A stretch of 63,169 bases of DNA, filler included, from Sphacelaria rigidula (Eukaryota): assembly GCA_964200075.2 (NCBI GenBank). It is 8 parts of 8 records of this genome, joined end to end, with 100 filler letters (N's around TTAATTAATTAA, not from the genome) between each part and the next. Parts side by side here need not be neighbours in the genome. Positions count along the whole stretch, not along the records: positions 39,547 to 47,354 come from CAXNAA020013388.1; 7 more parts are not named here. One strand, 5' to 3'. The position numbers and the translations under genes were made by a program. Of the stretch, positions 8,484-56,550 are shown in pieces. The stretch's first letter is position 1. The number at the start of each line of letters is the position of its first letter. The notes under the pieces were generated by a model. That model was not told where the DNA came from and searched no databases. It saw nothing but the letters and a program-made list of their open reading frames with translations.

Positions 8484-9092
8484 GTTTGTGGTTGATATTT
8501 GGTGGTAACTGGATGACTTTTCCGACCGGACTTTTTTCACACCATTAACTGTAATCGCGTGTTTGTTCTGCGCGTTTGATGTTGCATGGACGCTGGTTAC
8601 CTTGTTTTGTATTTTTGCACGGGGGAGGGAAATTATACATCAAATCGTACTCACCTAGTCTTCCAGGTGACTCAATTTTTCAAGTACTTCCGGGGTTCAT
8701 GCTGGTGGTGGGGGAAGGGAGGAGGGGGGGGTCCCTCACGCGTACGCGGCGGTGTACGTTTTGTTTTTCTCGGAAGGTAAAACTCATTCGCGGAGAATTC
8801 AGCGGGGCTTTCTTAGCGCCAGCCAGGTGTTTGTTGTCTACGCTGTCGCGCTATCTTGTGTTTTGGCTATCGACCTGTATGTGGAACCAAAAATGATTTT
8901 CGGGCCGTGTTCCGCGCACTGCTATACCGACGAGTAGAGTAAATTTCTCCCTGCTTGCCAGTCCCCGCACCTCCGTCCCTTCGAGGACGCGTGGTCATCA
9001 GTCTAGTATTTGAAAGATCCAAGACAAGAATACAAAATACGCCCCCCTTCCCCCGCGCGTGCGCCTCCTCTCCACAACCTCCGTCTGGACAG

Positions 9093-9746
9093 AGCTGCCA
9101 AAGATTTGGCCGACCTGTTGCTTCAAGAAGAAGCAGCTTCCACGGAGGCGGTCAATGGAAAACGTCACATGAGATCGTCGCCAACGTCATCTGCTCGAGG
9201 CGGCGGAGGGTCTGGTCGTACGCATGACGGCGCAAGCGCAGGTGCAGGCAGGTCCAAAGTTCGCGGAAAGAAGAAAGGCCTCAAGAAGAAGCGCGGCGGC
9301 GGCGGCGGCGGCCGGGGAGGCGCTAGTGGTTCGACAACCGGAGATAGAACACGAGAGGTCGCCGAGGCCAGCAACAATTCCCCCGCAACGGCTGCAGGAT
9401 CGAGCGCCCTTGACACCGTTGATTCTCCGGAAGCACAAGTTGAGGTGAATGATGGCCAGACGCGAGCCGATGATAACGGCCGTGACAAGAGCGTGGCTGA
9501 TGAAGGAGGCTACTCTACCGATGCATCGTCACAAGAAGAGGATCTGGAGATGCTGCGTCGTGAAACGGCGGGGGCGAAAGGGTTGGAGAGGTCGCGAAAG
9601 CATGGCCGTGCTGACGCTCGTGGGGCTGAACGGGAAAGGGGAGATGGATATGGAGGGAGGCGAAGGGAGGAGTCGACGGACGACGAGGAGGAGCAGAGGG
9701 GAGTGGTGAAGAAGCTCAGATTGAGGACGGAAGTCGGACGCATGGG
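9093..9746 (+). CDS. Contig-2 gene, exon b (acidic helix, Lys-rich NLS-like patch)
   Basis: CAG acceptor, GG|GTGAGG donor, phase 2/2. Encodes AAKDLADLLLQEEAAS..GKKKGLKKKRG. Confidence 0.8.
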
Positions 9747-9932
9747 GTGAGGAGTGGGAAGCGTCTGACTCGAGTCACAATGTCGCCGTAGTTTCCAGTC
9801 GTGGCTTCAAGGTTTTCACGCCGGTGATTTTCACGCCGGTACTCGCTTTGTTGTTTTGTTTCACATCTGTTTTAGGTGCTGCCTCGTTCGAGCATCTTTT
9901 TCTTGTTTTGTGCTTTCAGCTTTATGTCGGTG

Positions 9933-10190
9933 GAGCAATGCTACGGTAGGGGTGTGCTTTTCTCGCGTTTTTTTTTTTCTGGTTCAGGGGCTCCTAACGA
10001 TTCCAGACGCACTAGAATATGGGTTAGGGCATCCCCGTTTGCAGATTTATTCGGGATATCTCCAGCACATTAAGTAGTAATCCTGGCGTACTCTCGCATA
10101 GTTTCATAAGTCGTGTTTTGGATGAGATGAAGGGCTCTTAACATTTCTAACCTCAGAAAATATTTGTGTACCCCAACCGTAGCATCACTC
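9933..10190 (+). mobile_element. 258-bp non-autonomous TIR element, Sola2-like
   Basis: TIR GAGCAATGCTACGGTAGGGGT / ACCCCAACCGTAGCATCACTC, 4-bp TSD GGTG on both sides, intronic, homologous to 35380-35637. Confidence 0.85.
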
Positions 10191-10289
10191 GGTGTGATTG
10201 TTTCTGTCAGAAACCAGCGTGTCCAAGAAACGCGACCAATCACGCCTCTCCTGCACTTCGCTCCGTTGTACCTTGTACCTCAGCTCTAG

Positions 10290-11073
10290 GCCCAACGTCG
10301 GCGCGACAACAGGAAGGATGGGTGTGACAATTCTTGCCACCGCCGGCCGTGGTACCACCAGCTGTGGTAACGGAGCAGGTGACGGCTTCGTCGTCCCTGT
10401 CGACATGCGCAGAAAAGCCAAGCTCAGAGCCTCGGTGCACTCCTTGGTCCTGGAAGTGGTGGAGAACGCTCTCACCCTGTGTATTCCTGCTCCGAAGACC
10501 TCGTTGATATCACCGGAAAAGAACGTGAAGCAACAACGCTCTCGACGGGCCGGCGGCAGCGGGGGGGGCTTTTCTGCATCCACAACAACTACAGCTGTCT
10601 CGGTACCCCCTCGGACAGCAGCCCCGCAGGATAAAACGCCGTTCACCATGCGGAAAAACAATGCTGCCGCAAAAGTCACAACGGCGTCGTTGAGATATTT
10701 ACCTAGACAATTAGCTCCCGGGTCGATTACAGTGACGGTCCCCCAAAAGCCTCCGCTGCCCCCGCCTCCCGTGTCGTTGACGCGGGCTTGGCCTTCACCA
10801 GCAGAGTCCTTATTGTCTGCTCCGCGCCCCGCATGGGATATCCCGAATACTGGTCCTTCGGCCGTTGCGCAGGGGAGTGGCGAAGGAGGTGGAGGCCGCA
10901 ACGTTTCGCTTCAGGCGACGATTCTAATGCCGCCACCCTCGCCGACACCGCCTCCGACGCCATCGATTAACACTGTTCATAGCGGTACCGCTGCTGTCGG
11001 CCCGACAGTAGCTCAGGCTGTGGCAAAACCGCGCAGGCAGTCGTCGAGGTTGGGATCGCCGAGACCGAGGGAA

Positions 11074-11612: not shown

Positions 11613-14607
11613 GACTTTGCCGACATCGTGGACACCACATGCCGTCCACCACGAGGGCCGCATTCCTCCTTGAGGACGACGACCGCATCCTCCTCTGCCG
11701 GGCACATCCACGCGCCACGAAGCGCTCCGGGTTACTTCTCTTCGTCGCCACGTCCGGTATCTCCGTCAGTTCCCTCCCCACGTCCTCCCGCGCCGGCACC
11801 GCCAACAGCAACAACGGCAACCTCGGCCGCATTCCACAACCATGGAATGGCGCTCGACTGGCGCACTAGCGGCGGCGGCGGCGGAGCAGGACGTGGCGGC
11901 GAAAAACGAGCTGGGAGCACGGTGGACCACGCCAGCGGGTCATCGTCATCAAAAGCGACCGGCGATGTCGCAGAGGTTTCGCTGATCTCCAACGGGCACG
12001 ATGGCGGCGGTGGCGATGGCCCCGGAGGGACGGACCGGAAGCGGTCGGGCAGAGGATCTGGGATCTTCACCCCGCAGATGGGAGGCGGGAGCAGTTTTTT
12101 CGGAGGGCAGGGTCTGTTTTTGTGGACTCCTTCTGTTGAAGGCCACTCTATCGATGAGAATCGAGGAGATGAGCTTGCTGGAAGTGGGTGGGGCGGCGGC
12201 GGCGGAGGCGGTAGAGAAGGGGGGCAATCCAATCGGCACATAGCGGCTGTTGCATCAACGCCACCGTCTACGATGCAGCAAAATCCAACGCTCGAGTCTT
12301 GGGAAGGCGACGGGAGATCTGCGATGGGGGATTCGTGGGATGCCGCGCTCCGGGAAGGCATGGTCTCTCCCGATGTAGAGTTGGAAGTAGATTTGCCGTT
12401 AACAGACGGGCTTTCGGTGGATGATGGTGGCGAAATAGCAGGGATGGGGATAATCGGCAGTAGGGGGTTGGATGAGATACGGGAAGAGCCTGTCGGGGGC
12501 GAGGCAGAACCTCTGCTTCCGGATGGTTGTGAGCATGCGCCGCCGGGCGAGTCAGCCCTCGAGAGTGGTGTTTCATCACCGGCCAGCGCAGTCGACAAAG
12601 CCCCCGTAACCTCCGACGCCGATGCTACCCGGGCCTCTGATAAGGATGATGGAGACGATGCCGGTCGAGCTGGCGAGATTTCAATTGCGACTCCGCCAGA
12701 CGTACCCAGCGGCATACCTGAGGGTGACGGAGGTTCGGATACGATGGCTCCTGCCTGCGGGGGAAGCACCATTCCAAATGAGAGCGAATCTGAAGAACCG
12801 CGTGCGCGGGCCGACGGTGCAAACAAGAAGGCTACGGATATCAAGGACAGGAACAGTCCCACTGAAACACCAACGGATGGCAAGGATCAATTGTCGCCAA
12901 CCGATACAGTTCCAAGCTCAAGCGATTCCCACGATCCCGTCGCAATCGTCACCGGCACACCTGAGGATCCTTCTACCAAGGTGGTGCCGCCCCCGGAGCC
13001 TCAAGATGCTTCGGAGGACGTCGCTGTGTTGTCCGTTGAACATTCTACGGTGACTACGGGCAATGTGACCTGCTGCTCGTGCGCGTGTCACAAGTTGCAA
13101 TCGCATTTGCCTCCAACCCCGCCGCCTTCGCGATCTTCACGGCTGAGCCGTCGTCAGCAGCGGCGACGGGCGTCGGCGCCCGAGAAACGCGGTGGCGGCA
13201 GCGTTTCTGGTAAAGAGGGGCAGTCTCGTGAAGGAAATGAAGCCGACAGTGGCGCCGCTGCCACCGCCCCTGCTGCTGCTCCCTCCTCTAGTAGTCCAGG
13301 TGTTGCCGGCGGCGGGCGTATACCAGGCCCTCACGCGCTCGCGCGTACCTTGAGTGAGGACTCGCGGCGTGTGCCCAAGAACGCTCGCCGTCACCAAGTT
13401 CAACAACAGTATCAACGGCAGCAGCAGCAGCAGCAACAACAACAGCAACAGCAACAGCAACAACAGCCGGCCGTCGTTGGCACCCTCGCTGCGGTGAACT
13501 CGTCGTCGTCGCTGGGAAAACTTGTCTCGGGGTCCGGCACGAGTCTCAAACCCGCTGCCGGTATCTCCACTGTCGGCGCTTCCCCCGAGCGCCACCCTGA
13601 TTGCAATGCCCGCACGCCGCCTCGATCGGGGCGACGACATCAGCCCAGTTCAAACGGCGGTGGCAGCGGTGGCAGTGGTGGCAGCGGCGGCAGCGGAAGA
13701 GGAGGGCGCGGCCGCGTCGGATCGTCCTCCGTACCATCCAATCGTCTGTCTAACGTGCGCCGTCGAAAGAGTGAATCCGGTCTCGGACAAGCTGCGATAT
13801 CACGGGCGGGCCTCGTTGACCCACCTTACCCTGGGACCAGCGGTACAAAGATGCGAAGCAGACGCAGCGTTTCGGCTGCAGGGGCCAATGCAGGAGCCCT
13901 TGTAACGCCAGCGGCAGCGACCGTGGCCACGGGGACTGCAGGCGGAAAAATAAAAGCCGGCACGCCGCCTTCATGGAGTTGGTATGTTTTCAACGGCGAC
14001 GATTCATCTGCTTCCCGCACGGATGCCGGCGGAAGCGGGGCACCGGCTCGCCGTGGAGGGTATACGTGGTCTCGCGGGCGCAGCGACAGCGATGCGTGCA
14101 CGCCGTCCAACCGGAAACACGGACCGCAGGGGGATAAGGACCAAACCTCATACTCCCTTGGTGTTTCGGCTCACTCTCACCCGGTATCCGCCGGGGAGGA
14201 AGGGTGGAGCGTCAGCCGAGAAGGCGGGGTCAGCGGCGGAGATGACGACACATCAGCGACGGCGGCAGCGGTAGGGCGGGCTCAGCGAACGTTGCTGCCT
14301 TGGGGCGGCGGGGCGGGGCACCAGCGAGGGGGCCCCGACCGGAACAATGCCGCGAAGAGCCAAGAGGGTGACGCCGCTGGTCATGGTATGAGTTTCCGCA
14401 GCAGGGGGGGATCGTGGGACTCGGATCCGAGAGACGGATTCGAGCTTCGGATTGACCGTGACTTGAAAGCCGGCAGGCCGGGAGCAAGATCGGCGCCGCG
14501 GGGAGGGGCGTCGAGAAGGATGTTCGGGGATGGGGCGAGGAGTACGTCGGAGCTAATGGTAAGCGGCGGAGGCGCGCAGGACGAGTCGGTGCTCACCACC
14601 GGCGAAG
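11613..14607 (+). CDS. Contig-2 gene, exon d (~3 kb, disordered, poly-Q, CCSCAC motif); gene continues beyond contig
   Basis: TAG|GAC acceptor in phase 0, in frame with the 995-aa ORF; G|GTATGT donor in phase 1. Confidence 0.85.
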
Positions 14608-15644
14608 GTATGTGAGAGGATTGTTGGAGGATACGTTCATGGCCGTCCAAGCACCTGACGGGTTCTATCGGCCGTTTTTTGCTGTATTGGTGGCTTTTCG
14701 TGACTGCGTGTGTGTGTGCATTCGGTACTCCCATTTTTTACCGCGGGAAACCGTATTTAAAACTTGCTCGGCCGACGACTTCTTGCGTACCGGTTGTCGT
14801 ACTTTTGTTTTTTTTCATGTTGGTACAACCAACCCTTCGCCAGAATTCTCCACCACACTCAGTCATTCTACAATTCACTCGATGCTGCCGCTTGAATAGC
14901 TGTGGCCAAAGAAAGTGAGGGAAATATTCCGAGAATGTAGTAGCTAGTGTTGTACACCAACAACTTATATTCAAGGGTCAATTAATTATTAAAAGTGTAT
15001 GTGATTGTTGATTATAATCAAATCAACTTGCTGCTGATTGTTGATCATCAATCAAATACGGTTGATTGGTCAATCTCTCAACTGATCGTGATTGGTCGAT
15101 CATCTGTGGAAATAAGAAAAAGGCGTTCGCGTCGTGTAACGCCAAATGTTTGCTTACCACGCGCGCGAGCAAACAGTGGATCTACTCAAGACGATGGTAC
15201 ACGGCTACAGCAGATCCATACATACTTGTCCCTATATAGCAGTAGCAGCACACACCAGCCCGCACGCCGCACAGCACAGGAGTAGAGGAGTACGCTCAGG
15301 GTTACTCGCAACTCGATACCATGACTGGCGCCGTCAGCCATGGTGCAGGTGCTGCACCCGCTGCCGACAATGCCGCATCGGTGGTTCTCCCTCACTTGAC
15401 AACAGTCAAGCTGAAAGTACAGCCGGTTCTGTGTTGTCGGTTGCACTGTTTGCTGTGCACTGTTCATTCTTATTTTGGTAAAATAGGGTATCTTCATCAA
15501 TACTGCTTGCAGGGTACCGGACGGAAAGGAAACATGACATTCTGCATATTACAAGAGATGCGTGTGTTCCATCTCTGACGACGGTTTGTGGGTAGTGAGT
15601 GGGTAGAACGGTACCGGATCTGTTTATCCGTTGCACCCGGAGGA

Positions 15645-39446: not shown

Positions 39447-39546
39447 NNNNNNNNNNNNNNNNNNNNNNNNNNNNNNNNNNNNNNNNNNNNTTAATTAATT
39501 AANNNNNNNNNNNNNNNNNNNNNNNNNNNNNNNNNNNNNNNNNNNN
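39447..39546. other. Artificial contig linker
   Basis: N44-TTAATTAATTAA-N44. Confidence 0.99.
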
Positions 39547-41746
39547 TCTCTAATTTGCTACAGAGTAAAAACTCACACAATGCAAGCAGCCAGGCTGTGC
39601 ATATTTCCAACAAATTTCACGCCAAGGCAAGAAGAAATGTGTAATATTACCGAATTTCTCGACAAACCTTTGTACATGTGCTTCTTGGGGATCATCCTGG
39701 CACGCATCGTGGTGTTCTTCTTTTCTTGTAAGCCGTCCTGTACCGCCTTCAGGGGGCCTGGATACTGGGACCCCTGGAAGCTGGTGGCTAACGAAGAGTA
39801 CGATCAATTGATCGATTTGGAGCATCAAAATACCTTCGGAACTCCAATCCGGATGACCTGAGCATTTCTGCAACAGATATGAGGGAAATCGTCACGAGGC
39901 TCCCTGGGTCTTTTGTGCGCATCATGAGTGGAGAGTAGACGACGCCAAAACGCAAAACATGACGGTTTTGGGCATATTCTGACTTCGCTGGAACCGGTCC
40001 AAAAATGTGTTTTTCCCGCTAGATTTCCGAGCACATGACGGTTACTAGGATTTTAGGCACGTGGGGATTCGGTGGAGACTGGGCTTGGAATATGTGCCTC
40101 CAATTTCACAACAATCTGAGAGGCGCTGATTGTTCGAGACACATTTTCGTCCATGGCGCCAACGCTCTAGCCTTGGACAAGAATCCGGCCATGTCACCCT
40201 CTTTGTCTGTTCATCGCGCTCAGCATGAAACCATGCATACGTATGACTATCGGGTGCGTATCGCGGAAGGCATTTGCGGAAGAGGAATATCGGGTCCTTG
40301 ACGTGAACCAGCCTGTATTGCTGACACGTGAGTTTCGTCCGCTTTTGCACGAGATCTGCAAGCCCCGTATTTGAATTCCTGAGTGACGGTATCCTACCAC
40401 AATCAATTCATGTTGGCGCATCATGAGTTCGGAATGCACCCAGAGAGAGAGGTCGAAGGAATGTGTGCTTCGCCGCCGCCACAAGAATTAGGATTTCGCT
40501 AAACCGCTGCAAGTTGAAGCGCAATTTGCTACAGAGCTGTACTTCGCACGAACGAGGTATGAACCACGCCGCTTTGATCTCAACACACGAGAGTTGGGTA
40601 GGCACGTTGGCGGTGGTCCTCCGAACGACCGTACTCGAGACCCGAGGAATCCACACCTGGGGGGTATCACGAGGCCGAGGCCATCTAGAACGCTCGAACG
40701 AACCAGGAAAGTCCAAAATGTCGTGTTCGAAAGGGAAGTGCCCTCCCTTTCACCACTGGTGATGAGTGAAAATGAGCCCTCGATGTTGTTGGGATGGTTC
40801 GGGGGTTTTGCCACTACCATCCGAAGCCGTCAAGTCATTGTATGTATGGAACCGGCAGCGCAATGGCTGGCCACGGCGGTGGTACGTGGTTTACCCCCGT
40901 CGCACAGCTTGGATCTCGACAAGAGCATGTACACATCGACGTCCGATTGTCGCCGAGCGAACGACTCTGTGCGTAGCGGGTACAGAGCTGGTGTTGCACG
41001 AGGTTAGCTTGTGCTGCGGCTGTCTGTGCGTGTATGTCCACGCTCGGTTGTGTGAGAGTGCAGTGAGACGCTCACTCCCTCCAATGGAGATGCTGTTGCC
41101 CTGCTACGGTACAGGAAGAAACCCCACTTGTCGGGTAAAGTCCGTTCTGTGCTCCTCCACCATGACGGAAGCGGTTGTGGTGAGCTGCCGAGTTCGACCC
41201 CGTTGACCTCGACCACCGTGACTTTTATGAAGAATCCTGCAGTCCTGCAGTCACTACGCGCCCGATGAACCGATCTTTATCCGGACGTGGGAAGACGCCG
41301 TCGCGGCAGGCGCAAGCATTCCGTTGGAAGGGGGTGGTGCGGTCGATCGCAGGTGAAATAGTTCAAAGCAAGGCGTGTGCACCTGCAACCTCTGTCGCGA
41401 GAGTATGCCGTTACCCCCCGGAAATCGAGGGTGATTCCGCCCCGTTTGTTGGCAGGCAAACGCGATATTCCATCCCCTTCTATCCGCCGGACACGAGCTC
41501 GGCGTACCCCAACCCTAACCCTAATCCCAGCCCGGAGTCCCAGCCAACAGCGTTCAAGTCGGCTCCCACAGATGTTGATTACATCCACGGTTTGAAACAC
41601 GAGTGCCACGCCAGTTCTTTGCCACCTTCCCTCCACGAAGTCCGCATCGGTTGGTTGTTGGTAACCATACTAGTGGCGCGTTTTTTCCTCGCTCATTGCG
41701 TCGTCTCTTGCTTCGCCTCCTTCGGTTGCTTCCGCAGGGGACGACT

Positions 41747-41831
41747 ATGTTGTCCAAAGTGAAAATACTTCGCCTCTGCAGCATCGGGATCGTCAGCGTC
41801 CTGCTTACTCCATCTGCCGTCGGCCAGGATC
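41747..41831 (+). CDS. Secreted Cys-rich/mucin-like protein, exon 1 (signal peptide)
   Basis: MLSKVKILRLCSIGIVSVLLTPSAVG-QD has a basic N-region, hydrophobic core and AVG cleavage motif. C|GTGAGT donor in phase 1; upstream 5'UTR acceptor at 41737. Confidence 0.7.
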
Positions 41832-42453
41832 GTGAGTTGTCGAGTGATTGTGGTTGAGATGATGGTTTCACTGTAGCACCTGCACGGGACTGGCGGAACG
41901 GGTATCGGGCGCAACAGGCGCGGGAAGTTTTGTCGGAGTCACGGCAGGGGGACATTTATTGCGATGTTGCGGAACAAATGGCCGCGCCCTTCGAGAAATT
42001 CCACGTCCACGAGCTGATTCCTCAGCCGTATTTTATCGCCGTGCGTGCTGTGTGTTGTTGACCCTATTCCATGCATTTCTTTCCCACTGCTACCCCGAGT
42101 GCGGACTCACCTCCTGCCTCGACATCCGAGACGAACCCCAGCACCAGTTCCCTCTCCCGCCCCAACGCCAGCGCCGACTCCCACCGGTCAGGGGTGGCGC
42201 ACGACCTCAGCGGCATGAAGTTGCCCGCATCCCGAGGAACCACCAACCCCACGCCATTGTGATCGCTTTTGTACGAGCTAAGAGCAACGATTGTTGTGTA
42301 CGAAAGGCGTACGCGTCAAGTTGTCGGAGTCACGGCGAAGCGAGGGTTCTCCCCTGCGTGAGCGAAACAGTGCTACGACCTTCACGGAAACGCACATCGA
42401 TTTGCCGTCGCGTGTACATGCTCGTGTCGCCGCTCCTGCCCGTTATGTGACAG

Positions 42454-42543
42454 GCTGTGCCGCGAACAGCGACTGCGAGGATACGTTCACGGGCGAGTTC
42501 GCCGACATCTGCGCTGTTCAGGGCAACAGTGGTAACTGTGCAG
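42454..42543 (+). CDS. Secreted protein, exon 2 (4 Cys)
   Basis: CAG / G|GTGACT, 90 bp, phase 1-1. Encodes CAANSDCEDTFTGEFADICAVQGNSGNCA. Confidence 0.75.
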
Positions 42544-42871
42544 GTGACTGTCCCCCCGCGATCGACCGTGCATCCTGTAATCATACGAGTCAGTTCCACG
42601 CACAGCCAACAGGACGGACTGCACACGGGTGAAGTACATGGAACAAGACCTCCCCCTGTTGACCACAGGAGGGTTGGATCCGATCCGAGGGTGCGGCCGT
42701 CCAGAGACGGTTGCCACGAGCCACGAACGCTCGTTGATCGCTAAGCGCAACTCGCGAGCAAAAATGACGCCGTTCTTCCCCCCCCCCCGTGCGGTGCAGC
42801 GGTAGCAAGAGATGCCATTTGTCTACTGCTGCTCTGACGACTGCTCCCGGTTTTTCTGTACGCATACACAG

Positions 42872-43012
42872 CGTGCATCGACAATACGGCTACGTGCAGA
42901 ATCAGGGAGTTTGATGACGGCACTCGCGAGAACGACTGCTGTAGGACCAGAGACTGCGTGAATGCCAACGGACCCGGCGATGGCGGAAACGACGACAAGT
43001 GCCAACTCAAAG
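42872..43012 (+). CDS. Secreted protein, exon 3 (knottin-like C-x6-C-x13-CC-x4-C-x14-C)
   Basis: CAG / G|GTATGA, 141 bp, phase 1-1. Encodes CIDNTATCRIREFDDGTRENDCCRTRDCVNANGPGDGGNDDKCQLK. Confidence 0.75.
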
Positions 43013-43329
43013 GTATGATCATGTCTGTAGATGGCGCGCAAGCGACGTTTCGTCGACCACAGAAAAACTGGTTTGGCCCGAGAGGTGGCACCTGGTGACT
43101 GGTGACAGGTTGCCTGCGTTCTAGCTGGGAAGTCGTACATAATCCGACGATCATTCGGCCTTTGTACGCTCTCTCAACGCGGAACCACGTGCAAGGCGTG
43201 TTGGTTACTTTCGACGTCATCGGCAAATTCACCGGTCAACTCACGACGACTGCCTTGTACTCCCGTACGTGTGACATCGTCTGTTTTCTCCACTGCCGAT
43301 AACGCACGCACCCACACACACGCTCCCAG

Positions 43330-43398
43330 GTTGCGTGAGCGATGGCGTCATCTGTCAGGGCGGCACGTGCTGCGCGATCGACCTCGACGTCTGTCTAG
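43330..43398 (+). CDS. Secreted protein, exon 4 (C-x6-C-x4-CC-x6-C)
   Basis: CAG / G|GTATTC, 69 bp, phase 1-1. Encodes GCVSDGVICQGGTCCAIDLDVCL. Confidence 0.7.
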
Positions 43399-44457
43399 GT
43401 ATTCGACAACACGGCAACACGCATGTGCACGTAGTCTGCGTGAACGCCGGCGGCATGGTACCACGAAATTGTCAGGGCCCACTACGTCTCGCTTGACCCA
43501 TGAGCGTGGCATTCGAACCGAGCAACGTTGTGACACGATGGTCCTTTATCCAATAGAGAACATTGTTCTTGTTGGGCAGTCGAACCAAGCTGAGCCCGAG
43601 CATGTCGGTATCAGCGCCGGACCCAGCTAGACGTGCAAGTATCACCCTCGTCCGTGTAGCCCATGGTCCCGACGTGAGCCCATCCCGACGTGGGCCCGTC
43701 ACATATTCGCGAAGATATAGGAATTGCCGGCTGATGCAGCGGGGGGTCTTGGGTACAGCGGCAAGCGTTGCTGCCCGCGATAGGTGGAAGGCTTGTTGAT
43801 GCATTTCTGCGAATGTCATGATGCGAACCAAACCTCGGGCGGTAGACATCAGTAACACGAGTGATGGAGCGAAAGGTACGAGATGTGTGAAGCGTAGCCA
43901 CCCTGCATGTCATTGGCGCGCCATCGACACGCCCACCCGACCTCGCTATGCTCGCAGACGATGGCCAAAGCATCGGCACCCCGGTGGTTGACGTTTGCCA
44001 GTGCACGAGTGGATCCCGCGATCCGGACACGAGGGAATGTGTCGGTGAGTTGGCGGCAATGTTGCTGACTCGATGTGAATGAATGTCGCCCTTCGCAATG
44101 TGACACGGCCGAGGAATGACGTCCGCCACCGTCGATAGTACCGTTCTTTCTTGGTACACAGCTGTGCGCGGGGATTTGTTGGCGTCAGAGAGCGTCGCAC
44201 GCGTCGTTTGCGGCTCAACTTCATGTTGCAGCGGCAGATGCAGTGCGTTGGCGACGGAAGGACTGAGCAATAGGAAACAGTCGTTCCAAGCCCGCAGTCT
44301 GCATCTCATGGGCATCTGCCTCGGGCACGGTCTGTAACTGAAAGTATGTTAGCAGGCGTATCTTGACGTGGTTGCAGTTGTCCATATTTGTACGCGCGTG
44401 ACCGTGACGACGTCGAGACGAGTCGACGTTCCTCGGCGCACGTCCCCTCCACCGCAG

Positions 44458-45617
44458 CGTCACCCCGGGCGCGCACGACGAGCAGTATCGTCGGTCTATC
44501 TTATCGCCATGCGTGCTTCCATGCGGTTAACTCACACCGTGCACCTTCCCCACTTGCTGCTCCGATTGTGAACTCACTTCCGGGACAAATTCTGGACCCA
44601 ACTCCTGCCCCAACACCGGCACCCACGCCTGCGCCTACCCCCGCCCCGACTCCTGCCCCAACACCGGCACCCACCCCTGCGCCTACCCCTGCCCCGACTC
44701 CTGCCCCAACACCGGCACCCACCCCTGCGCCTACCCCCGCCCCGACACCAGCACCAACCCCTGCGCCTACCCCCGCCCCGACTCCTGCCCCAACACCGGC
44801 ACCCACCCCTGCGCCTACCCCCGCCCCGACACCAGCACCAACCCCTGCGCCCACCCCCGCCCCGACTCCTGCCCCAACACCGGCACCCACCCCTGTGCCT
44901 ACCCCTGCCCCGACTCCTGCCCCAACACCGGCGCCGACCCCTGCGCCTACCCCCGCCCCGACACCAGCACCCACCCCTGCACCTACCCCCGCCCCGACTC
45001 CTGCCCCAACACCGGCACCCACCCCTGCGCCTACCCCCGCCCCGACACCAGCACCCACCCCTGCGCCCACCCCCGCCCCGACTCCTGCCCCAACCCCGGC
45101 ACCCACCCCTGCCCCGACTCCTGCCCCAACACCGGCGCCCACCCCTGCCCCGACTCCTGCCCCAACACCGGCGCCAACCCCTGCGCCCACCCCCGCCCCG
45201 ACACCAGCACCCACCCCTGCGCCTACCCCCGCCCCAACTCCTGCCCCGACCCCTGCCCCCACCCCTGCCCCAACCCCTGCCCCGACTCCTGCCCCAACAC
45301 CGGCACCGACCCCTGCGCCTACCCCTGCCCCGACTCCCGCTCCGACCCTTCCACCTACCCCGCCGCCGATGCCCGTCGGCGGCGACAGCTCCGACTCCAG
45401 TGACTCCGGTGACGGAGGAGGTGGCGGCCACGGCTCTGACTCCAGTGACTCCAGTGACGGAGGAGGCGGCGGCCATCGCTCTGACTCCGGTGACTCCTCT
45501 GACTCCGGTGACAAAGGGGGTCGCGGCCACAACTCTCGGGGTGGTGGCCACAGCTCTCGCGGTGGCGGTGGCGGTGGCGGTGGCGGTTCCAGTGACTCTT
45601 CGGATTCTCATGACTAG
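44458..45617 (+). CDS. Secreted protein, terminal exon: (PTPA)62 stalk plus Asp-Ser-Ser/Gly/His tail (5' boundary uncertain)
   Basis: The 744-bp array 44598-45341 varies almost only at synonymous sites. Stop TAG at 45615-45617; nearest phase-1 acceptor is CCGCAG at 44457. Confidence 0.75.
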
Positions 45618-47354
45618 AGCGGAAGCTCTTACGGCGGCGATTGCTCAGACGCCATTATCGGTCGGGGCGATGGATAGGCTCTTCTTGGTCGATATTTGTT
45701 CTAGTGTCGAGCTCCTCGCCTCAGGCAAGGACTGTTTGGTCGGACTGTCGTGGGACTGTTGCTCAACCTGTACGTGCTGAGATTGAGTGTCGCACAGCAA
45801 TAGAAGAACAGACAGCCAAGCGACCGTCGTCGCTTTGGTTTGAATATATAGGGCTTCAGCACACGTCACGGACCGTATTCAGCTCCAGACCTGCGTCGAA
45901 ACCGTACACGGTGTGGATGTTCTCGGCCGATCGTCTGGCAGTTCTAGTCTTTATTTATAACGTCAAATACACAGAGAAGCAATCCTCCTGCTCACTGCAG
46001 CTCATGAGATATTTCACTCAGATGTAAGAAAGACTTGTTGTTCACGATATCGGATGACGGCGAAGGACGACTCACGGGAGGGGCGAACGCGTCACTTGTC
46101 CTCGTCTCGAGGCATTGCTTCACGTAGGGATGCGTGGTCCTCCCCATTTTTGTTTATCATACAACGCGAATGCACGGCAGGGGAGGGAGGATCCTGAATG
46201 TCTTCCTATGGTGTTGAATGAGCGTGTACTGGGTGGTACCTTGATGGGGTCGTCATTTTGGCCAGCGCGCAATGTTCCTCCTAATTTCGTTCGTGTTCGT
46301 GCACCACATGGCGGAGACTGCGAGGTACTTGTGTGTATATTGATCAGTGTGACGTGAGGGTTGAGCGCGTCAGTACACTAGAGGAGGATGACGATCACGC
46401 TTGCTATGGCGTGGATGGAGGAGATGGAACGTCTGCTCTCGACGGCTCACCCTCCTGTGTGGCTTCACAGCTGTATGTTGCTAATGTATGACGTGTACGG
46501 GTCGCGCCCCTAGTGTATTCCTGTGTACGCAGGGTGCTAACCACTTGTTTTCGAGGCTACCGATACTGTTGGCTGCCGCAAGCCCGATGGGTTTTCACGG
46601 TACCTGGGTGTGGATTGCCGAAAGTACCCCGGGGTACGTGGGCTGTCGGGATCCCGCAGTGTTCGGTGATCGGGCGCGATAGCCTGTAGCTAGACAAGGA
46701 CACACAGTACGAAGCAGTATTGCAATGAAGTAGGAGTCGTGCTCGTCATGGCTGAAAACAGTGAAGACGGTCATGACCAGTATTGATATGTACGCAGACC
46801 GTTGCTGAATCTGAAATGATGAGCATCGTACAGCATGACCGGGAAGAACGGTCCGATGTAGCCTTGAATATTTCCTGTAGACTTCTGAGGGAACGAATAG
46901 GTTTTGTGGGAATGTGGGATGGCGGAGCATCCGTCGAGCGAAATGGGAAGAAGAAGAGCTTGATCCGTAAGGGAGCATAGCCACCGGCGAGTAAGACTAC
47001 CCGTGGAATGTATTGGGAGATTCTCATTTTATGGAAGTGAATCACTGTGATGGGAGAGCACTGTCGGATGCTCCCTTCGAGGCACAAAAGTGAGGGGAAG
47101 TGGTTTTTGCTATAAATACAGCGAGTGATGGGAACGTCATCCTGGTCGGATGTTTTTACCGAGAACAAGGTGGGAGCTTTCTCGGGTGCATGATGTATCG
47201 AGTGATGAGCCGGTGAGATTCAAGATTAATCCCTTGTTTCCTCTTTCTACATCTTCGCGGGCTGTTGCCCTCCCCGTGTGTGTGCCATTTGTGTTGGCCG
47301 CTGAGCGCCACTTCCAAAATTCATCTGTTTCTTTGCCTCGAGTGTGTTGGACAC

Positions 47355-55362: not shown

Positions 55363-56299
55363 AATATCATAAAAAAGTAATGAGTATCATAGAAAAAAAA
55401 AAAAAAAGTGTGGGGGTGGGTGTGGGGTAGGTGGATGAAAGAGTGAAAAAAAAGCAAAAAAATCTGAGTGAAAGCTGGGAAACAGAAGCAAAAAAATCGA
55501 GAAAAAAACAATATAAAACAAAACAAAACCAACTGGAAAAGGGAACAGAATGAAACCGAGGAGAGCTCAGAATAAATACATGTTTTTTTTTTATAATACA
55601 TGATGAAAAAATGACAACAAAAAAAACGAAGACACGAAAAATCCAAAACTACAGACACGAAGGCACACATAAAAAGACACGAGAGGAAAACAAAACGATA
55701 CTGACAGTCCATCCTGTGTGCATGATCGTGCTTGCACCATGAGGAGGCATTATGACTGAACAGCATTTGTTTGGTTATGCTGGAGTGGATTTTACTACAG
55801 TACAAAAGTCACGCACTGCCGTAGATTCACCGTTGACAGCGGCGAATCATGGACGAATCCGAGTCTTCCACTAGCTTTCTATCAAACACACAAAAAGCAT
55901 CGCGAGAATCCCAGAAAAAAACAGAAAACAGATGACAGATAACAGAACCACAGTGGAACCAAATTGGACCTAGACCCAAAACCATACGACAGATCGAACC
56001 GTCAACCGCCAGGTCGAAAAAAACGACTGACTAGAGCGGACAGAAAAAAAAAAAAAAACATTAACAACCCATTTTTCACGGAACGAGAAAAAAATAAGCT
56101 GAAGCTCGTGAAAAGTGATGGCATTCACGGCACAGCAGAGATAGAACTTACGTGTAAAAGGGTCAAGTGAACAATCGTTGTTACTTGCACAAACCGAGCT
56201 GATACCGCCAGGGCTGCATGTATGTGTGTGTGTGCTACTGTGCTGTGCTGTGCTGTGCTGAGGTCACTGTACCACTCGGTAGTTGAGAGATATTTCTCG

Positions 56300-56550
56300 G
56301 AAAATTATGGTTTGTGCAGGTGCTGATGCAATTCGAATAACACGAACCCTAACCCTAATCCCAACCCCAACCCCAACGAAGACATACCGAGAACCCTCGG
56401 GCAAGGGAGGCGCAACGTGTTCCCAAGGCAAAGTGTGCGTTGCCAGACCTCAAATCGGCGCTCCAGGCGCCGAATTAGACAAAAACGCTCTCTGCGCACG
56501 CTAGGAGCACGCCAGGAGCATAGCGCCCTCCAAAGATCCGGATTTCGGTG
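56300..56550 (+). repeat. Dispersed repeat with telomere-like patch (family of 27290-27510; another copy at 57500-57680)
   Basis: AACCCTAACCCTAATCCCAACCCCAACC followed by the shared conserved blocks. Confidence 0.8.

Follow-up and report, generated by a model that had tools for sequence, protein, structure and literature searches.

The 63,169-nucleotide stretch of Sphacelaria rigidula DNA analysed here (assembly GCA_964200075.2; hereafter the window) contains at positions 41747-45617, within the part taken from CAXNAA020013388.1, a locus that an earlier note had described as coding for a secreted protein with a cysteine-rich head, a PTPA repeat stalk and an acidic tail. The locus is a genuine plus-strand spliced eukaryotic gene of at least seven exons, one of them a leader exon outside the window and six of them coding (Table 1). 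Its product is most likely a secreted protein of about 543 residues, and we hold the explanation given below, taken as a whole, to be moderately probable. The six-exon coding sequence comprises 1632 nt (543 codons), with a predicted junction between exon 5 and exon 6. Exons 2 to 5 each begin after a CAG acceptor preceded by a pyrimidine-rich stretch and end at a GT donor, and all four are Cys-rich and of phase 1-1. The three GT-AG exons of 90, 141 and 69 nt reported by the earlier note were borne out by their borders and by spliced contigs, but a fourth phase 1-1 Cys exon, exon 5, had been overlooked. The gene had also been called mostly hidden from the open reading frame (ORF) track; the locus shows that prokaryote-style ORF tracks lose the whole head of such genes.

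Table 1. Features of the spliced gene, in positions of the window (UTR, untranslated region)
Feature	Position	Strand	Description
End of 5' UTR	41738..41746	+	lies after the 5' UTR intron acceptor (CAG at 41735-41737), which a pyrimidine tract precedes
Coding exon 1, ATG and signal peptide	41747..41831	+	28 codons plus 1 base, ends in phase 1, donor GTGAGT
Exon 2	42454..42543	+	90 nt, phase 1-1, 4 Cys; both joints present in contigs
Exon 3, knot-like module	42872..43012	+	141 nt, phase 1-1, 6 Cys
Exon 4	43330..43398	+	69 nt, phase 1-1, 5 Cys; both joints from one X3 contig
Exon 5	43958..44044	+	87 nt, phase 1-1, 3 Cys, donor GTGAGT; X3 contig reaches 44028
Candidate extra exon	44162..44242	+	81 nt, phase 1-1, CAG acceptor, GTGCGT donor, 4 Cys; one of two candidates passing the filter
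Start of last exon (exon 6)	44458..44597	+	putative CAG acceptor, 47-residue non-repeat linker, 1 Cys
Tandem array	44598..45341	+	62 four-residue units, 248 residues
Acidic Gly/Ser/Asp/His tail and stop	45342..45617	+	91 residues, then TAG at 45615-45617

Splicing was examined with contigs from three runs of organism A (X1, X2 and X4) and one run of organism B (X3), which were aligned to positions 41000-44600 only. The RNA nature of the runs was a guess by the tool, and no run recorded as RNA contains the stretch. Five small runs guessed to be RNA contained 5-17% of the sampled words, and four other runs contained 81-94%. One contig each in X1 and X2 skipped 41832-42453 (joint 41831/42454), with 87 letters on the shorter side, and the same joint was found in X3, placed a few letters off. 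Positions 42544-42871 (joint 42543/42872) were skipped in all four runs, with 77-87 letters on each side. A single X3 contig skipped 43013-43329 (joint 43012/43330), with 23 letters on the short side, which is under the tool's criterion of 31 letters there; the same contig also skipped 43399-43957 (joint 43398/43958), with 69 letters on each side. Every skipped piece had GT..AG ends, and the depth was zero in all bins lying entirely within introns. Of the three junctions that the earlier note had put forward for checking, the first two were thus recovered as spliced contigs, whereas the third was seen in X3 only and with its short side below the criterion. These data support one plus-strand spliced gene at least across exon 1 to exon 5. 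X1 and X2 also contained 0.17 and 0.14, respectively, of the sampled words of 41600-45800, more than the aligned pieces explain; these runs might thus include the last exon as well, but the words were not counted as evidence for it.

The contigs of all four runs carried, upstream of 41737, 15-89 letters with no match in the window at up to three mismatches. Because these letters are absent from the window and a CAG acceptor stands at 41735-41737, the mRNA has a leader exon outside the readable window. This exon lies in a masked stretch, farther upstream or on another contig, and is spliced onto the acceptor at 41736/41737. When the last 30 leader letters were read by eye, organism A showed an in-frame ATG 15 nt before 41747, whereas organism B had ATA there, and therefore the conserved start is 41747. 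The five extra N-terminal residues would not alter the signal peptide.

Short contigs matching 42948-43005 in exon 3 with 0-4 differing letters, and diverging after 43005, were also observed. The word depth of these contigs was about 8,700-11,000 in X1 and X2 and 392 in X4. One contig type matched the start of exon 2 (42453-42482) as well; its two matches are separated by exactly 137 unlike letters, which is also the spacing found here. The data point to another locus outside the window, a paralogue that shares this module layout and is far more abundant. The abundance of this paralogue in RNA-like runs suggests that the family may be quantitatively important.

The link between the cysteine-rich exons and the PTPA exon was then weighed. 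We infer that the two are joined through the acceptor at 44458. Exon 5 ends at a strong GTGAGT donor without a stop codon, so that a downstream exon is required, and the PTPA frame (44367-45617, 416 codons) has no Met ahead of the array. There are 17 phase-1 AG acceptors in 44061-44800 with at least 20 open codons behind them, and the long frame is reached only from 44458 (386 codons) and from 44752. The latter is inside the array, and 44458 is the sole frame-fitting acceptor outside it; it has a pyrimidine-rich tract and CAG, and the intron from 44044 to 44458 would be 413 nt long, compared with 317-622 nt for the other four introns.

The strongest competing explanation, which we nevertheless regard as unlikely, is that the locus holds two transcription units or has another 3' structure. 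A small secreted Cys-rich protein would then end in an exon that was not found, and the PTPA/tail frame would belong to another transcript or would be joined only through additional or alternative exons. Several results weigh in this direction and against a single gene. No contig aligned from X1-X4 lies on 44029-44600, which is a gap in the data, and the head and the stalk may be on separate transcripts. The candidate extra exon at 44162-44242, a second plausible phase 1-1 exon, may intervene. The GC content at third codon positions (GC3) of the exon 6 linker is 0.50, as against 0.68-0.82 in exons 1-5, and a search with exon 6 residues 1-47 returned 15 candidates, none at E ≤ 1, which leaves a linker without detectable relatives. 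Under the six-exon model the number of Cys in the mature protein is odd (19, the nineteenth coming from the linker), and the abundant paralogue is visible over the Cys modules only. A search with the start of exon 6 and the first repeats gave four proteins at E 0.24-0.83, which were not significant and were crowded by repeat words. However, separate transcripts fit poorly with an exon 5 that has a strong donor and no stop, with a PTPA frame that has no start codon of its own, and with a well-formed acceptor 413 nt downstream that restores the frame exactly at an intron length within the range of the others.

On the reading as one gene, the properties of the whole protein were examined. The N-terminus has a short basic start, hydrophobic residues at 7-21 (mean Kyte-Doolittle value 2.16) and small residues followed by Gln-Asp, and the strongest hydrophobic 19-residue window (Kyte-Doolittle mean 1.89) begins at residue 7. 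Inspection and hydropathy thus agreed with the signal-peptide exon proposed earlier (ATG at 41747, hydrophobic core), and to judge from this N-terminus the protein is most likely secreted. Past the first 30 residues, the maximum 19-residue Kyte-Doolittle mean was 1.10. Since hydrophobic sequence is limited to the N-terminus and the protein ends in a hydrophilic stretch, there is no membrane span and no C-terminus of the glycosylphosphatidylinositol (GPI) type, as the earlier note had said. The mature protein consists of 27% P, 15% A, 14.8% T and 7% S (P+A+S+T about 64%). None of the seven pieces of the gene matched a Pfam family at E ≤ 10, in keeping with the earlier statement that no named family was recognised.

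The head, encoded by exons 2-5, is about 130 residues long and has a pI of about 4.05; it contains 18 Cys and three aromatic residues and lacks any N-x-S/T sequon. The Cys spacing is C-5-C-11-C-8-C in exon 2, C-6-C-13-CC-4-C-14-C in exon 3 (46 aa, one aromatic residue) and C-6-C-4-CC-6-C-14-C-1-C-11-C in exons 4 and 5 together, where the first six Cys follow the order of exon 3. The local alignment z was 0.97 for exon 3 against exons 4+5 (a score reached by 89 of 500 shuffles), -0.49 for exon 3 against exon 2 and -0.14 for exon 2 against exons 4+5. With z values between modules no higher than 0.97, sequence similarity does not support the common Cys spacing.

Relatives were found for exon 3. 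A full HMMER search of 1.84 billion representatives with this exon gave four proteins at E ≤ 0.001 (E 4.5e-12 to 1e-4), with 59-73% identity and lengths of 89-153 aa. The relatives are unnamed ORFs on Logan/ENA contigs of 602-2398 nt; their similarity does not extend beyond the borders of exon 3, and their flanks resemble translated acceptor and donor sequence. They look like genomic readings of this exon, not spliced, from related loci. In the alignment of exon 3 with six relatives, 14 columns were invariant, including all six Cys in all seven sequences. The search of exon 3 against longer proteins gave no candidate, a weak blank given that the relatives found otherwise are 89-153 aa long.

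The fold of exon 3 was predicted by AlphaFold2 from the seven-row alignment, which gave a model with a mean predicted local distance difference test (pLDDT) score of 80.3 and four short strands. When this model was compared by VIA-align with 48,161 representative chains, 47 reached Z ≥ 2 and none Z ≥ 5; the best match was the sea-anemone peptide 6xyh (Z 4.5, root-mean-square deviation 2.6, 39 of 40 residues aligned). In a second structural look, 3 of 50 chains had Z ≥ 2. About 40 of the 47 chains at Z ≥ 2 are, judged in part by entry titles, inhibitor-cystine-knot (ICK) peptides, including spider, scorpion, cone-snail and anemone toxins, gurmarin, tachystatins, an amaranth amylase inhibitor, a spinach trypsin inhibitor, AgRP and asteropsins. 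The remaining matches were IGFBP N-domains, draxin, Dickkopf, colipase, a tick complement inhibitor and a Conus peptide. The nearest clusters in an Atlas feature search partly carried Toxin_12, at a weak score of 0.75; the Atlas search with the last exon gave no usable hit.

Three results weaken the case for a knot. A Z of at most 4.5 is a weak fold match, and a Z under 8 may show a common arrangement only. Foldseek gave no match to the PDB at E ≤ 0.001 among 50 at E ≤ 10 (best E 0.64), and the sequence profile of exon 3 against the PDB gave a single hit, chymotrypsinogen C, which was not significant (E 1.7). A model of 46 residues cannot give a large Z, however, and it is the make-up of the match list that counts. 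We therefore keep a knot-like fold as the best current prediction for exon 3 and think it fairly likely; membership of exon 3 in any named knottin family is not supported by the sequence comparisons. The ICK head claimed by the earlier note accordingly stood as to its C-C-CC-C-C spacing, which is present in the six related sequences, but the fold itself was weakly supported, and the AlphaFold and Foldseek check that it had suggested yielded a usable model but no significant Foldseek match. A literature search for an algal knottin found none among the brown-alga knottin papers listed, which were judged by title, and the one paper found on cystine knots and Ectocarpus dealt, in its relevant passage, with VWD domains only.

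If the modules are knots, they might themselves be the active part, as defence, antimicrobial or inhibitor peptides displayed on the stalk or released from a precursor, while the stalk and tail would merely present or retain them. The structural neighbours include tachystatins, Ep-AMP1, the amaranth amylase inhibitor and the spinach trypsin inhibitor, and the very high word depth of the paralogue (about 8,700-11,000) would also suit such a role. However, similarity of fold does not establish function, and the similarity is weak here. In its strong acidity the head is unlike most antimicrobial knottins, which are cationic, and inspection of the exon translations showed no dibasic processing sites between the modules. 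We consider this explanation doubtful, and somewhat less probable than that of two transcripts.

The array that follows the linker was analysed unit by unit. Its 62 units of 12 nt encode 61 PTPA and one PTPV, so the count of 62 given by the earlier note was exact, and its Tandem Repeats Finder (TRF) scores were 608-902. The units occur in 19 distinct DNA versions encoding two peptides, and all the variation is at codon position 3 except for one C-to-T base. Such third-position-only variation indicates coding constraint and not a neutral minisatellite. One result counts against reading the array as PTPA: the minus-strand frame, with 60 AGVG and one TGVG, has the same third-position property. 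Because the pattern is symmetric on both strands, the test shows coding and not strand. The plus strand is preferred because it is in phase with the spliced gene and continues into the tail and a stop, and because the minus frame has no Met. It is thus very improbable that the repeat is coded on the minus strand as (AGVG)n or that it is a GC-rich minisatellite without coding function, part of a 3' UTR, for although the minus frame is free of stops and the array is open in all three plus frames, no exons were identified around the minus frame, the tail entered by the plus frame is structured, and the strict period of three speaks against non-coding DNA.

Read as PTPA, the 248-residue stretch is predicted to be an extended, polyproline-II-like rod that cannot form a globule, with a length of up to about 77 nm (computed at about 0.31 nm per residue, polyproline-II). 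In plant arabinogalactan proteins (AGPs), O-glycosylation of the arabinogalactan type is directed by non-contiguous Pro motifs of this kind, alternating Thr-Pro and Ala-Pro, and Thr can bear mucin-type glycans. The stalk fits AGP or mucin-type glycomotifs, and its glycosylation is a prediction from these motifs. The repeat string PTPAPTPA was not found in any paper in the literature search.

The tail of 91 residues contains 31 G, 23 S, 14 D, 7 P, 5 H and 4 R, has a net charge of -9 and forms a hydrophilic C-terminal stretch. A period of 45 nt with 2.7 copies was found within it at 45377-45497. The tail had previously been called phosphophoryn-like: the Asp-Ser-Ser (DSS) triplets are indeed present (six), but they form no long dominant array, Gly makes up 34% and there is no Pfam match; the label describes composition only. 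A disordered acidic tail of this kind could bind cations or basic partners. Phosphorylation of the tail and bridging to Ca-alginate are speculation.

From these sequence features, the most probable role of the product is that of a non-enzymatic extracellular-matrix or cell-wall glycoprotein. The protein would enter the secretory pathway through its N-terminal signal. The 18-Cys acidic head would fold into compact, protease-resistant modules built from phase 1-1 exons, the module of exon 3 being predicted to be ICK-like, and this knot-like head might bind a matrix partner. The glycosylated (PTPA)62 rod would serve as a spacer, and the disordered, net negative Gly/Ser/Asp/His tail could interact with cations or charged polymers. 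A bolder version, to which we give little credence, is that the gene represents an undescribed lineage-restricted matrix family in which tandem knot modules, shuffled as phase 1-1 exons, are fused to a (PTPA)n rod like that of AGPs and to an acidic tail that can be phosphorylated. The abundant paralogue, with an expression perhaps a hundred-fold higher, could then be one of the main structural or adhesive constituents of the wall. The protein itself would bridge a ligand of the head and a cation-cross-linked acidic polysaccharide such as Ca-alginate. Extracellular-matrix proteins of algae and protists are poorly known in comparison with the polysaccharides. The gene, if verified, would offer a concrete and testable candidate for the tethering or spacing of wall polymers. 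If true, knottin-like modules would be building blocks of a large structural protein and not free toxins or inhibitors.

The rest of the window was also examined. None of the 114 other ORFs of at least 96 aa matched a Pfam family, and no Rfam family and no tRNA were found in the whole window, which is poor in recognisable genes. When the six exon peptides were searched against the window by tblastn, only self hits were obtained, the best other match having an E of 0.027; this exon-2-like match at 56120-56191 on the minus strand (50% identity over 24 residues) lies beside a CA-rich microsatellite and is probably due to chance. A low-complexity frame of 1000 codons at 11613-14615 on the plus strand, rich in Gly, Ser, Ala and Pro and with a poly-Gln run, had no Pfam family and might be one large exon coding for a disordered protein unrelated to this gene. 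Short interstitial telomere-like CCCTAA/TTAGGG repeats were observed at about 41511-41530 on the plus strand, about 220 nt upstream of the ATG of the gene, and at about 56340-56375 on the minus strand. Runs of N, in pairs of 44 or as single runs of 10, occurred every ~7,909 bases from 7811 to 55362, with one at 39447-39546; they look more like masking than like assembly gaps.

Finally, the protein was compared with known systems, beginning with the head. Exon 3 resembles ICK peptides in its six Cys in the order C-C-CC-C-C within a module of 30-50 residues and in its small beta-rich model, and the structures closest to its model are those of ICK toxins, antimicrobial peptides and inhibitors (many at Z 2-3.4). 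It differs in that its loops of 13 and 14 residues are longer than those in most matches and that it matches no Pfam knottin family. Moreover, it is one module of a 543-residue protein with an acidic head and not a free peptide, and its knot is a prediction. The family 1 carbohydrate-binding module (CBM1) is also a small disulphide-stabilised beta wedge on a Pro/Thr-rich glycosylated linker, as in fungal cellulases and the oomycete protein CBEL. The available part of one report gives CBM1 two disulphides and a flat face on which three aromatic residues are aligned, describes CBEL as a CBM1-bearing protein of an oomycete, a stramenopile relative, and records no CBM1 in Ectocarpus or diatoms (PMC3532174). 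Exon 3 was rejected as a CBM1, as it has no Pfam CBM_1 match, six Cys and one aromatic residue.

In the tail, the likeness to dentin phosphophoryn lies in Asp-Ser-Ser triplets within a secreted, disordered and acidic segment. However, only six triplets stand in the 91 residues here, His and Arg are interspersed with abundant Gly, and Pfam recorded no similarity. The stalk recalls the proline/threonine/serine (PTS) regions of mucins, being a secreted Pro/Thr-rich tandem array, expected to be O-glycosylated and extended, that is flanked by disulphide-rich modules. In contrast to mucins, this protein has no VWD, C8, TIL, CysD or CTCK domain in Pfam and is much smaller, and Ser is nearly absent from its array.

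The gene product also resembles the chimeric AGPs or hydroxyproline-rich wall glycoproteins of plants, which have a signal peptide and in which a long Thr-Pro and Ala-Pro stretch, its Pro residues non-contiguous, is fused to an unrelated globular domain. It has both a secretion signal, judged by inspection, and a backbone biased to P, A, S and T, and its array contains only P, T and A apart from one V. A classical AGP was ruled out, as there is no C-terminal GPI signal. Two reviews, both citing Herve et al. 2016, state that AGP backbone motifs occur in proteins encoded by brown-algal genomes and that chimeric AGP-like core proteins are expressed in brown algae (PMC8307928, PMC11468063). The protein described here differs from AGPs in having a perfect 62-unit PTPA array and not mixed glycomotifs, and in a knot-like Cys head without a known AGP counterpart. 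The earlier note had recognised no named family with this architecture. This held for the head, which matches none, but not for the overall build, which resembles that of known proline-rich wall proteins and small mucins, with a knottin-looking head.

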